This document shows, piece after piece, positions 2,565-6,889 of a DNA stretch of 28,312 bases. Within the stretch, counting starts at the first letter, position 1. Each line of letters opens with the position of its first letter. Source of the stretch: an uncultured Gammaproteobacteria bacterium (GTDB lineage: Bacteria; Patescibacteriota; Patescibacteriia; UBA2169); contig CAYILY010000002.1 in assembly GCA_964364395.1 (NCBI GenBank), positions 1 through 28,312 of the forward strand, given 5' to 3'. The translations under genes were made by a program, and so were the position numbers. Under the pieces are notes generated by a model, which was not told the DNA's origin, did no database searches, and saw only the letters and a list, made by a program, of their open reading frames with translations.

Positions 2565-2632
2565 AGTTTATTAGTTTAATAGTTGAATACTTAGAAAATT
2601 TTTAAACTATTAAACCAATAAACTATTAAACT
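2565..2632. repeat. Empty copy of the 8-mer-armed inverted-repeat element
   Basis: Left arm AGTTTATTAGTTTAATAGTT; right arm 2606-2632 ACTATTAAACCAATAAACTATTAAACT is the exact reverse complement of 4997-5023. Confidence 0.85.
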
Positions 2633-2637
2633 CTTTT

Positions 2638-4125
2638 ATGTCAATAAACACGATTGTTGAACAATTAAAAAAGCAAATCAGCGAATTCGAAAAAGCCGTT
2701 GAGGTTGAGGAGGTGGGCGCGGTAATCGAAGTCGGCGACGGCATTGCCAAACTCTCTGGCTTAACGCGCTGCCAATCCAATGAGATGTTGGAATTCCCCA
2801 ATAATACTTTTGGCGTCGCCCTCAATTTAGAAGAAGAAACCATTGGCGCCGTACTTTTGGGCGAATACGCCCATATTAAAGAAGGCGATACAGTTAAGCG
2901 CACGGGGCGTATTTTATCCGTGCCCGTGGGCGAAGAATTAATTGGCCGCGTGGTGAACCCATTAGGTTTGCCAATTGACGGACTAACTCCGATAAAGTCT
3001 AAAAAATTCTATCCGATTGAGCGCATTGCCCCGGGCGTTATGACCCGCGAGCCCGTTAGCCAGCCGGTGCAGACCGGCATTAAAGCCATTGATGCCATGA
3101 TCCCCATTGGCCGCGGCCAGCGTGAACTGATTATTGGCGATAGGCAGACCGGCAAAACCGCGGTGGCGATTGACGCCATTATCAACCAAAAAGGCCAGGA
3201 CATGATTTGCGTGTATGTGGCTATCGGCCAAAAAGAATCCAAAGTGGCGCGTTTGGTGGCTAAATTAAAAGAGACCGGGGCCATGGATTATACTATTATA
3301 GTATCAGCCGGCGCTTCGGATCCAGCTTCGCTTTTGTATATCGCGCCCTATGCCGGTGTGGCCATGGCGGAATATTTTATGGATCAGGGCAAAGACGTGC
3401 TGGTTATTTATGACGACTTATCCAAGCAAGCCTGGGCTTACCGCGAAATTTCGCTGCTTCTGCGCCGCCCGCCGGGCCGTGAAGCTTATCCGGGTGATGT
3501 GTTTTATTTGCACTCTCGTTTGCTGGAACGCGCTTGCCGCCGCAATCAGGAAGCGGGTGGCGGCTCCATCACGGCGTTGCCGATTATTGAAACCCAGTCC
3601 GGCGACGTGACGGCCTATATTCCGACTAATGTTATTTCCATTACTGATGGCCAAATTTTCCTGGAAACGGATTTATTTTATCGCGGCATCCGTCCGGCTT
3701 TGAACGTTGGTATTTCTGTCTCCCGTGTCGGTTCAGCGGCGCAGATTAAACCCATGAAAAAAGTGGCCGGCAAAATGAAACTGGCCATGGCCCAGTTCCG
3801 CGAAATGGAAGCTTTTGCCCAGTTCTCCAGCGACTTGGATCCGGAAACTAAAAAGCAGATTGATTTGGGCCAGCGCTTGGTGGAAATTTTAAAGCAACCC
3901 CAATTCCAACCCATGCCGGTAGCGAACCAGGTAGCGGTGATTTATGCCATCTCCAACGGCTATGCCAATAGCATCGCCGTAGCCGATATCCGCGACTGGG
4001 AAACCAAATTCCATGACCATATGAATAAAACCCATAAGCATTTATTAGACAAAATTGGCAAAGCTGAATGGGATGAAAAGATAGAGTCAGAATTAAAACA
4101 GGCCTGCCAGGATTATGCCGCTTAA
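2638..4125 (+). CDS. atpA: F0F1 ATP synthase subunit alpha
   Basis: GDRQTGKT Walker [24 protein letters not shown]. Confidence 0.99.
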
Positions 4126-4993
4126 TACTAAAACAATTAAGCGCCGCATCAAGTCCGTGGGTTCGACCAAAAAGATCACCAAAGCCATGGAAATGATTTC
4201 GGCCGTGAAAATGCGCAAGGCCGTGGCCAATGATTTAGCGAGCCGCGCCTACGCGAATTTAGCCTGGCAAATGCTTTCGGATATTGCCGCCAAAACTACC
4301 ATTGCCTATCATCCGCTTTTGGTGCGCCGGAGCGTGAAAACCATTGGTTTGATCCTTATTACTTCGAACCGCGGTTTGGCGGGCGGCTTCTCCAGCCGTT
4401 TGCTGGCCAAAGTTCATAATTATATAAAAAAAGTGGAAGAAGGCGGGGTAAAAAAGGTGGAAGTGATTTTAGTGGGCAAGCGCGGGCAAAAAATTTACCA
4501 GCGCTTTGGCCACCAAGTGGCGGCCGCCTGGCCGAAAATTGATTTAACCACCCGCGTCGAGGAAGTATTGCCGCTCTCGCAAATGGTGGTTAGCGAATAC
4601 ATTAACAAAAAATACGACAAAATCGTTTTGGCTTTTATGGATTTTGAATCAGCTTTAAAACAAACTCCGCGCCTTAAACAATTATTGCCCATTGTGCGCG
4701 CTAAACAGTTTGCGCGCGGCGAGGCTAAGCGCGACTTTGAATTTTTGTTTGAGCCCGGGCCCAAAGCGGCCTTGGAAGTGCTGGTGCCCCGCTTGGTGGA
4801 AATGCAGATTTACCAGGCCATTGTGGAATCCGACGCTTCCGAGTACTCGGCCCGCATGATGGCCATGGCCAATGCCACGGAGGCGGCGTCGGATATGATT
4901 ACAGAATTAAATTATATTTATAATAAAGCGCGGCAAGCGGCGATTACCCAAGAAATATCCGAGATTGTGGGTGGCGCTGCTGCATTAGAGTGA
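4115..4993 (+). CDS. atpG: F0F1 ATP synthase subunit gamma
   Basis: [13 protein letters not shown] and [12 protein letters not shown] motifs; 11-bp overlap with atpA. Confidence 0.98.
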
Positions 4994-4996
4994 AGA

Positions 4997-5442
4997 AGTT
5001 TAATAGTTTATTGGTTTAATAGTATGGAGGGAAACAAGTTTAGAGATTTTACGGAGTTGGATGTTTGGAAATTAGCGCATGAGTTGAGATTAAAAGTTTA
5101 TATTTTAGTGAGGTATTTGCCAAAAGACGAACAGTATAATATTGTCAGCCAAATTAAAAGATCTGCTGATTCAATTGGCGCTAATATAGCCGAAGGACAC
5201 GGAAGATTCCATTTTCAAGAAAATATACAGTTTTGCAGACAAGCGAGAGGTTCGTTAGAAGAAACAAGAGATCATTTGATTTTTATAAAAGATTCTCAAA
5301 TGATTAAGAAAGTTAGTAGTATTGAATATTTAATTGATATTTGTAATCAAATTAAATTTAAATTAAATGGTTATATTGGTTACTTAAAGAAGTGTAAGTT
5401 AGGAGACTAATAAACCAATAAACTTTTAAACTAATAAACTTC
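4997..5442 (+). mobile_element. Inverted-repeat-bounded unit carrying a four-helix-bundle gene, inserted between atpG and atpD
   Basis: 27-bp arms at 4997-5023 and 5406-5432 match 25/27 as inverted repeats, with a further 8-mer to 5442. The enclosed gene is AT-rich. Mobility is inferred from the empty copies; no transposase is present. Confidence 0.65.
5024..5410 (+). CDS. Four helix bundle protein (23S rRNA intervening-sequence protein / Avd-like family)
   Basis: F.DL.VW..AH....LP.DE.Y.....QIKRSA.SI.ANIAEG.GR....F...ARGSL.E motifs. Confidence 0.92.
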   Translation: MEGNKFRDFTELDVWKLAHELRLKVYILVRYLPKDEQYNIVSQIKRSADSIGANIAEGHGRFHFQENIQFCRQARGSLEETRDHLIFIKDSQMIKKVSSIEYLIDICNQIKFKLNGYIGYLKKCKLGD

Positions 5443-5445
5443 ATT

Positions 5446-6813
5446 ATGAACAAGGGAATAATCACAAAAATAATCGGCGTCGTAGTTGATGTTAGTTTTC
5501 CCACAGAGCTACCTAATCTCTACCATGCTTTAGAAACCAAAATGTCGGACGGTTCGACTTTAGTTTTGGAAGTGCAAAAACACATGGGTGGCAAAGTGGT
5601 GCGCACGGTGGCCATGTCCACCACTGATGGCCTGGAGCGTGGGCAAGAAGTTTCAGACCGGGGCGAGCCGATCACCGTGCCGGTGGGGGAATTAACCTTG
5701 GGCCGGATGTTTAATGTGACCGGCGACCCGATTGACGGCCAGGCCGCGCCAAAAACCAAAAAGAAGTATCCTATCCACCGCAAGGCGCCGGATTTTACCA
5801 AGCAATCGACTAAATATGAAATTTTGGAAACCGGCATTAAAGTGGTGGATTTAATCTGCCCGTTCTTAAAAGGCGGCAAGGTCGGTTTGTTCGGCGGCGC
5901 CGGGGTAGGCAAAACCGTGGTTATCCAAGAATTAATCCGCAACATCGCGCAAGAACACGGCGGTTATTCCATGTTCGCGGGCGTGGGCGAGCGTTCTAGA
6001 GAAGGCAATGACTTATACCGCGAAATGAAAGACAGCGGCGTGCTAAGCAAAACCGCTTTAGTCTTTGGCCAGATGAACGAACCGCCGGGCGCCCGGGCCC
6101 GCGTGGCTTTAACAGCCTTGGCTATGGCTGAATATTTCCGCGATGAAGAAGGCAGAGATTTACTCTTATTTATTGACAACATTTTTCGCTTTACCCAGGC
6201 TGGCTCTGAAGTTTCGGCTTTGTTAGGCCGCATGCCTTCGGCCGTGGGTTATCAGCCGACTTTGGCCACGGAAATGGGTTTGCTCCAAGAACGCATTACT
6301 TCCACTGACAAAGGCTCCATTACCTCCGTTCAAGCCGTGTATGTGCCGGCGGACGACTTAACCGATCCAGCGCCAGCCACTACTTTCGCGCACTTGGACT
6401 CCACGGTCGTATTAAACCGTTCGCTCTCGGAATTGGGTATTTATCCGGCCGTGGACCCCTTGGACTCCAACTCCACGATTTTAGACCCGAACATTGTCGG
6501 AGAGGAGCATTACCGCACAGCCCGTGATGTACAAAAGGTTTTGCAGCGCTATAAAGATTTGCAGGATATTATCGCGATTCTTGGCATGGAAGAACTCTCG
6601 GATGAAGATAAAATCACAGTCTCGCGCGCCCGCAAGATCCAACGTTTCCTTTCGCAGCCTTTCTTTGTGGCCGAAGCCTTTACTGGCACCGAAGGCAAGT
6701 ATGTGCCTTTGGCCGAAACCATCCGCGGTTTCCGCGAAATTTTAGATGGCCAGCATGACGAAAAAGGCGAACAAGCGTTTTATATGAAAGGCGGAATTGA
6801 TGAAGTAAAATAG
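5446..6813 (+). CDS. atpD: F0F1 ATP synthase subunit beta
   Basis: GGAGVGKT Walker [14 protein letters not shown]. Confidence 0.99.
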
Positions 6814-6889
6814 TTTAACAGTTTATTGGTTTAATAGTTCGCACTGAATTTTATCACTAATAAATCATTAAACTATTAAACAAATAAAC
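6812..6889. repeat. Empty copy of the 8-mer-armed inverted-repeat element
   Basis: Left arm AGTTTAACAGTTTATTGGTTTAATAGT (26/27 to 4997-5023) overlaps the atpD TAG; 17-nt spacer; right arm ACTAATAAATCATTAAACTATTAAACAAATAAAC. Confidence 0.85.

Follow-up and report, generated by a model that had tools for sequence, protein, structure and literature searches.

The atp locus and its enclosed gene

The window analysed here is a stretch of 28,312 nucleotides (nt), contig CAYILY010000002.1 of the GenBank assembly GCA_964364395.1, from an uncultured Gammaproteobacteria bacterium that GTDB places in the Patescibacteriota (UBA2169); the assembly, termed G000 below, is a draft of 103 contigs and is 89% complete. 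The window holds an F-type ATP synthase (atp) operon, and immediately past the stop codon of its atpG gene lies the element under study, a small gene for a four-helix-bundle protein enclosed by inverted arrays of an 8-mer, GTTTAWTR. Two shorter hairpins of the same arm family, with no gene in their loops, occupy two other gaps of the operon. The genes and elements concerned are the following.

2175-2564, forward strand: atpH (delta/OSCP subunit; PF00213, E value 2.5e-22), upstream neighbour of hairpin 1
2565-2632, no strand assigned: gene-less hairpin 1, inverted GTTTAWTR arrays with a loop of ~20-21 nt, occupying the atpH-atpA gap
2638-4125, forward strand: atpA (PF00006, PF00306, PF02874)
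4115-4993, forward strand: atpG (PF00231, E value 4.2e-85), upstream neighbour of the cassette
4997-5023, forward strand: left arm of the cassette, ~3.4 tandem 8-mers, abutting the ATG at 5024
5024-5410, forward strand: four-helix-bundle gene of 128 amino acids (PF05635/TIGR02436), ~30% GC
5406-5440, forward strand: right arm of the cassette, inverted 8-mers, including the TAA stop codon at 5408-5410
5446-6813, forward strand: atpD, downstream neighbour of the cassette
6812-6890, no strand assigned: gene-less hairpin 2, same arm family as the cassette, loop of ~17 nt, occupying the atpD-atpC gap
6894-7316, forward strand: atpC (PF02823, PF00401)

The insert between atpG and atpD (4997-5440) is 444 bp long and has a GC content of 23-36% vs ~50% in the atp genes. 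An initial annotation, made from the letters of the window, had described a 27-bp arm of 8-mers directly before the ATG and an inverted copy, matching at 25/27 positions, that holds the stop codon. This description proved exact throughout: positions 4997-5023 and 5406-5432 are mutually complementary at 25/27 positions (93%), and the right arm runs on to ~5440. The same arms had been reported as empty hairpins between atpH and atpA (27/27) and between atpD and atpC (26/27), which is likewise confirmed, with spacers of ~21 and ~17 nt; the right arm of hairpin 1 (2606-2632) is complementary to the left arm of the cassette at 27/27 positions, and the left arm of hairpin 2 (6812-6838) is identical to it at 26/27. 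A 19-nt core of the arm has eight matches in the window at three or fewer mismatches, vs 0.02 expected from shuffled sequences. As RNA, hairpin 1 folds with -16.8 kcal/mol (z -5.5 vs shuffles) and hairpin 2 with -19.2 kcal/mol (z -4.8), while the minimum-energy fold of the whole insert pairs both cassette arms, with an arm-arm RNA duplex of -26 kcal/mol. Judged from folding, it is plausible that the arms would loop out the cargo gene on the atp mRNA, as the initial annotation had proposed. Known RNA families gave zero matches, and ten further small open reading frames (ORFs) of the window gave zero matches to PF05635.

The ORF at 5024-5410 matches PF05635 (E value 1.1e-31; 109.7 bits, cut-off 33.8) and TIGR02436, "four helix bundle protein" (2.7e-31; 108 bits, cut-off 24); the family was discovered in intervening sequences of ribosomal RNA. 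The AlphaFold2 model of the protein is confident and has four helices (predicted local distance difference test score 93.8), and a Foldseek search returned as its top match XCC0516 of Xanthomonas (2GSC; template modelling (TM) scores 0.85/0.95), together with BT_0352 (2RLD), followed by Avd (4DWL; TM 0.73/0.83) and its complex with RNA and reverse transcriptase (8UB7). Both 2GSC and 2RLD, the homologues with solved structures, are pentamers of five chains. Because the nearest structures are these pentamers and next to them Avd and its RNA complex, the protein is, by homology, probably a pentameric ring that binds nucleic acid. Its conserved polar residues lie chiefly on helix 2 (Q43, R46, S50, N54, and E57), with E80 on helix 3. 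Against homologues, the ratio of nonsynonymous to synonymous substitution (dN/dS) is 0.09-0.15, with dS ~1 or saturated.

The initial annotation had also spoken of a unit free of transposase. This holds for the families searched: Y1_Tnp (PF01797), the sole transposase family sought, was found neither in G000, at 89% completeness, nor in the relative G003, and no reverse transcriptase (PF00078) was found in G000. The PF05635 gene of the cassette is the only one in this incomplete draft, without paralogues. A gene for RNase III is present (G000:C27:1519-1914).

Insertion, armed layout, and amplification

The atp operons of relatives show that the three elements were inserted. In G003, the nearest genome compared (AtpD 93% identical to that of G000), the gaps corresponding to atpH-atpA, atpG-atpD, and atpD-atpC measure only 4, 5, and 2 nt, where G000 has 73, 452, and 80 nt; all three elements are therefore insertions. 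In G011 (AtpD 91% identical), the gaps are 5, 26, and 73 nt, the last being filled by a palindrome of the GTCATCCTGAGGC type that is unrelated to the window arms and resembles the element of the window's atpF-atpH gap. At the three atp sites the elements start 0-3 nt past the upstream stop codon and finish 4-5 nt before the next ATG, and the inserted unit is bounded by the outer ends of its arms. The 444-bp insert is very probably an inserted cassette of the PF05635/intervening-sequence family.

Homologues that are 87, 78, and 75% identical sit upstream of atpD in other organisms. A further homologue, 74% identical and also with GTTTAATA/GTTTATTA arms, has a T2SSE ATPase gene on one side and an unknown gene on the other. 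Within the same taxonomic family, some members have no cassette at atpG-atpD. To the extent that sequence comparison can tell, these close homologues show both descent at the atp site and movement. The initial annotation had held that a mobile unit would be contradicted if relatives simply kept the gene and its arms in place by descent; some relatives do keep the cassette at atpG-atpD, while members of the same family lack it and the same-armed homologue stands elsewhere. In the organism with the 87% identical homologue, a DDE transposase gene (PF01609; L242:498-1475) lies directly upstream of the cassette, at the position where atpG is expected. The atpG-atpD gap of another relative, G004 (L094), contains an insert of ~300 nt that begins with a CCGAAT-like arm.

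The armed layout recurs widely in the gene family. PF05635 genes are present in 28/41 related genomes, often in several copies. Each gene was scored by the best ungapped inverted repeat that its two flanks form with each other, and the 99th percentile among 572 control genes from G000 served as the threshold. By this score, which is a loose one and was applied to non-random samples of the family, 70/90 PF05635 genes of the 28 related genomes exceed the threshold, as do 59/80 loci from a profile search of named genomes of many phyla (Patescibacteria, Clostridia, Bacteroidota, Gammaproteobacteria, Acidobacteriota, Fibrobacter, and Ignavibacteria). The co-occurrence of arms with four-helix-bundle genes elsewhere, on which the initial annotation had staked its proposal, is thereby borne out. 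The period of the arms is almost always 7 or 8, and the unit sequence varies between loci. When 55 armed genes with readable flanks were compared with their neighbours, 46 proved to be co-oriented with both and 2 opposed to both. An insert with palindromic arms should land either way, and this bias therefore fits a promoterless gene that is read from the host operon. A literature search returned no work linking the PF05635 family to dispersed repeat arrays.

Whole-genome scans for periodic hairpins covered three genomes and pattern counts covered 46. On the other contigs of G000 there are ~15 hairpins and several solo arms of the cassette's unit, so that the genome-wide census envisaged by the initial annotation did yield further copies of the arms, although no paralogue of the gene accompanies them in this genome. 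The pattern of the window arms has 73 matches in G000 (8 for the reversed control) and is at background level in 40 relatives, whose best protein match to the window protein is at most 38% identical. A pattern taken from the arms of one PF05635 gene of G004 has 87 matches in that genome and only background elsewhere. A change of unit is seen in the L244 organism, where the cassette units of both arms have all shifted to GTTAAWTW and the gene-less hairpin in the atpA-atpG gap has the shifted unit too. Further afield, a Fibrobacter genome with an AGTGGTT-armed gene has 175 matches of that heptamer on many contigs, vs 0 in two control genomes; Thiohalocapsa has a few sites.

The complete 1.19-Mb genome G025, for which gene calls are simple ORF calls, yielded 77 strict periodic hairpins in a de novo scan, nearly all of period 7 and falling into about six families. 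It has four PF05635 genes, each in the loop of a different arm family. Three of these gene-bearing families have 40-79 array sites elsewhere in the genome, vs 1-2 in the reversed-pattern control; for the fourth (F4) the counts are 70 and 78, but this control is uninformative because the F4 pattern is nearly symmetric. The complete 700-kb genome G029, which has no PF05635 gene, gave a single weak periodic hairpin, and the densities per Mb are 64.8 in G025, 26 in G000, and 1.4 in G029. Arrays of CCAAT type are rich (at least 20 matches) in 10/41 genomes, 10/10 of which hold PF05635 genes, and 0/13 gene-less genomes are rich; since the genomes are related, this association is only indicative. The amplification of an arm family only in the genome with the matching gene (G000, G004, Fibrobacter, and all four genes of G025) suggests that protein and repeats work as a pair, as far as can be read from genome sequences. 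The large apparent loops of G025 hairpins were considered as cargo and rejected, in that ordinary genes (lexA, nrdR, a sigma factor gene, rpsF, and others) stand there between two separate hairpins. No periodic hairpin was found inside the 23S genes of G000 or G025.

Proposed arm recognition and its alternatives

Protein and arms vary together. In a Mantel test of 69 armed genes, protein identity correlates with arm similarity, and 0/2000 permutations reach the value observed. Even where the genomes belong to different taxonomic families, the proteins that are most alike (57-100% identity vs a mean of 25%) have arm units in common, and two traits of the arms are specific to clades, namely unit length (15/15) and strand polarity (27/30). 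Furthermore, the arms themselves are constrained: they are 83-87% identical to those of homologues even though synonymous sites are near or at saturation, and in family F1 of G025, 28/31 hairpins have exactly four heptamers per arm (4 x 7 = 28 nt). At the one variable unit position of F1, complementarity between the arms is no better than chance (45/87 vs 49.4 expected), and mismatches in G025 hairpins show no excess of G-U pairs on the sense strand (27 G-U vs 45 A-C). The units therefore look individually constrained, as binding sites would be, rather than as parts of a paired RNA stem.

Movement of whole units can be seen in G026, where two copies of a cassette lie 39 kb apart on one contig and are 97.8% identical over 405 nt. 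The limits of homology are the arms, including the order of the units and their indels; the flanks are unrelated, and in both copies a start codon follows 5-8 nt after the right end. Some F1 loops of G025 are related to one another, one of them inverted, and whole hairpins are therefore sometimes copied.

The reading that we favour, with moderate confidence, is that of an intervening-sequence-type mobile cassette whose ring-forming protein reads its own repeat arrays, in a manner resembling the relationship of RAYT proteins to REPIN elements. The PF05635 gene, in the loop of a hairpin with GTTTAWTR arms, was inserted just past the atpG stop codon, and the two short hairpins, gene-less members of that arm family, were inserted independently. 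The gene would be expressed by read-through from the host operon, and on the mRNA the stem of ~27 bp may be either cut or tolerated, as in 23S rRNA. The ring-forming protein would recognise arrays of its own unit; that it recognises its own arm units seems probable on balance. The gene-less hairpins may depend on the protein in trans, as REPINs do on RAYT; it is proposed only tentatively, by this analogy, that the spread of the hairpins depends on the protein. A more specific version, in which each protomer of the ring reads one unit of 7-8 nt, and a ring of changeable specificity makes, disperses, or preserves the arrays of that unit, must be regarded as rather unlikely.

A number of results weigh against this reading, the missing G-U excess on the sense strand among them. 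Target-site duplications are visible neither at the atp insertions nor in the G026 pair, the arm ends being fuzzy, and the cassette has long been kept at atpG-atpD across a subclade, so that movement must be rare. The loops of gene-less hairpins differ in length and sequence, are mostly unrelated to one another, and hold no remnant of the gene ends. The empty hairpins are therefore not plain deletion derivatives, and the MITE-like derivatives (miniature inverted-repeat transposable elements) of the initial annotation, whose interpretation is as a whole partly supported, find no support in the form proposed. In a Ruminococcus genome with an armed gene, the arms of the gene itself are the only arrays. 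Conversely, some arm families have no gene: G025 families F5 and F6 (ATGWACC and TAGGGTW; 50-65 array sites each, e.g. at 524824-524907 and 1063071-1063132) are without a PF05635 gene, and in G000 no matching gene was found for the CCGAAT, AATMACC, and AAATCC types, although in this draft such genes may lie in the missing part. We know of no catalytic activity for the four-helix-bundle fold, and Y1_Tnp genes (IS200/RAYT-type) with 3, 7, and 1 matches in the hairpin-rich genomes G025, G026, and G035 encode transposases that could act on the hairpins. The looseness of the arm score and the make-up of its samples belong on the same side, and the genomes compared are related, so their counts are not independent.

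It has to be asked whether the hairpins are host elements that shape the operon mRNA (its stability, its processing, or translation of the next gene), the protein being their binding factor, autoregulated through the hairpin that encloses its own gene, and any spread slow and incidental. Such a domesticated regulator would account for the strong purifying selection on the protein and the constraint on the arms, for the retention of the cassette at the same atp site in the subclade, and for ~65 hairpins per Mb being kept in the streamlined 1.19-Mb genome of G025, where they are nearly all intergenic and sit 0-15 nt from stop and start codons, 61/77 of them between co-directional genes. It is difficult to reconcile with presence and absence varying within one taxonomic family, with arm families that are lineage-specific, and with the same gaps holding different elements in different genomes; nor does the sense strand have a G-U bias, and a genome without either gene or hairpins is in other respects ordinary for its class. 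We consider a regulator of this kind unlikely.

The arms might instead be a target and not part of the element, the hairpins being spread by another agent, either some host process or a transposase of Y1/RAYT-like type, while the gene cassette homes into their loops, much as intervening sequences occupy loops of 23S helices 25 and 45. In this model, the great excess of gene-less over gene-bearing hairpins, the existence of arm families without any gene, and the Y1_Tnp genes of G025, G026, and G035 would be expected, and rRNA intervening sequences do sit in stem-loops (PMC4990558). However, Y1_Tnp genes were found in neither G000 nor G003, the Y1 genes of G025 do not adjoin periodic hairpins, and the copies in G026 share the unit order and indels of their arms along with the gene. 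Moreover, given the covariation of protein and arms, the cassette would still need to recognise its own arm type, and the model is judged quite improbable. Recognition of the arms by the protein would in fact still be needed by this model and by the regulator alike. Finally, AT-rich intergenic palindromes might be so common in this genome that the gene came to lie between two of them by chance; lexA, nrdR, and other ordinary genes do look enclosed when both neighbouring gaps hold hairpins. The cassette, however, has a single arm on each side rather than two full hairpins, 70/90 and 59/80 family members are armed vs 1% of controls, and 8 matches of the arm core were observed where shuffles give 0.02, all of which makes coincidence exceedingly improbable. 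The mobile cassette that reads its own arrays is thus retained as the favoured reading.

Known systems and other repeats of the window

The closest likeness is to the ORF-bearing intervening sequences of 23S rRNA in Leptospira and Coxiella burnetii (PMC4990558), which have the same protein family, a gene in the loop of a terminal-inverted-repeat stem of ~28 bp, and tandem short repeats directly 5' of the ATG. In the S23p intervening sequence of C. burnetii, the stem is 28 bp long and three to four tandem heptamers precede the S23p ATG (PMC4990558). Such sequences are promoterless, transcribed with the host RNA, and proposed to be mobile, which we count as further likenesses. The cassette differs in sitting at atpG-atpD rather than in rRNA, in its 8-mer units, and in its dispersed gene-less hairpins; in addition, excision by RNase III is shown for the rRNA intervening sequences, whereas the present cassette is known from sequence and folding. 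The 28-nt F1 arm of G025 equals the Coxiella stem in length, and the arms of the window are 27-36 nt of 8-mers. The layout of a gene within a hairpin is thus already known from the Coxiella and Leptospira 23S intervening sequences; what is new in this window is the evidence for a partnership of gene and repeat.

The RAYT-REPIN system likewise combines a single gene, on either side of which stand inverted copies of a repeat that is also dispersed gene-less in the genome, with genome-specific repeat families and coevolution of gene and repeat. The present protein is instead a four-helix bundle and lacks HUH/Y1 motifs; its arms consist of tandem units of 7-8 nt, and the loops of gene-less copies are not conserved. 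To our knowledge, no transposition chemistry has been described for a four-helix-bundle protein, in contrast to RAYT. Like MITEs, the hairpins are short, intergenic, multi-copy, and without a transposase of their own; unlike MITEs, they have no visible target-site duplication, no conserved loops, arms made of tandem units, and a partner gene that is not a transposase. Avd of the diversity-generating retroelements has the same fold (TM 0.73/0.83) and is a pentamer binding RNA and reverse transcriptase. It differs at ~10% sequence identity and in its setting, since the cassette has atp genes as neighbours, template and variable repeats are absent, and the search of G000 for a reverse transcriptase gave none.

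Heptamer arrays have been described in Xanthomonas (GGGAATC) and Nostoc, where they were read as G-quadruplex repeats and tied to no gene (PMC4692102). These resemble the present arrays in their tandem 7-nt units, in their preference for four units, and in their position between co-directional ORFs, and they are transcribed; those of Xanthomonas are often convergent inverted pairs (PMC4692102), a further likeness.

The present results bear on the function of PF05635 proteins, a question dating from the 1990s, on the origin of rRNA intervening sequences, and on short tandem heptamer arrays in bacterial intergenic regions. The window shows one full and two empty versions side by side, and together with its relatives it links arms of a gene's own unit, amplification of gene-less copies in the same genome, and near-absence of hairpins where the gene is absent. 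A vague idea of a mobile element thereby becomes a concrete pairing of protein and repeat that is open to binding assays, for which homologous structures and culturable carriers exist. For annotation it matters that many operon gaps in small genomes of this class are taken up by such hairpins; the 1.19 Mb of G025 hold at least 77 by strict criteria. Should the unit-reading ring prove true, cassettes together with their gene-less hairpins would make up a class of mobile DNA that does without a transposase, and this class would also explain the heptamer repeats found in Xanthomonas and cyanobacteria as well as the intervening sequences of rRNA.

Hairpins of other arm types are found in the window and elsewhere in G000. 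Those of CCGAAT type, with units of ~8 nt, lie at window positions 13267-13345, 13730-13815, 25041-25083, 25563-25670, and 25868-25960 and span stop-to-start gaps. G000 has no PF05635 gene with CCGAAT arms; broadly similar CGAAAT-armed genes are present in G037 and G033. Hairpins of AATMACC/AAATCC type in G000 include C14:464-561, C14:1483-1594, C4:2727-2839, and C24:5520-5581, and the CCAAT pattern has 53 matches there; PF05635 genes with arms of this type are held by G001, G005, G007, and G038.

A distinct palindromic element (GTCATTCTGGAGCG ... CCTCCAGGATGAC) occupies the atpF-atpH gap of the window (2089-2174), which is 86 nt long vs 1 nt in G003 and 4 nt in G011. After atpC (7317-7353) there is a member of a GC-rich palindrome family (CTCCCCCTTACTAAGGGGGAG-like), which occurs again at 12642, 16221-16282, and 24703-24757 inside long ORFs. 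A gene for a HepT-like RNase (21328-21675; PF01934, E value 2e-29), probably belongs to a toxin-antitoxin pair, and the region around it has direct repeats of 254 nt (19864-20117 and 20877-21130).

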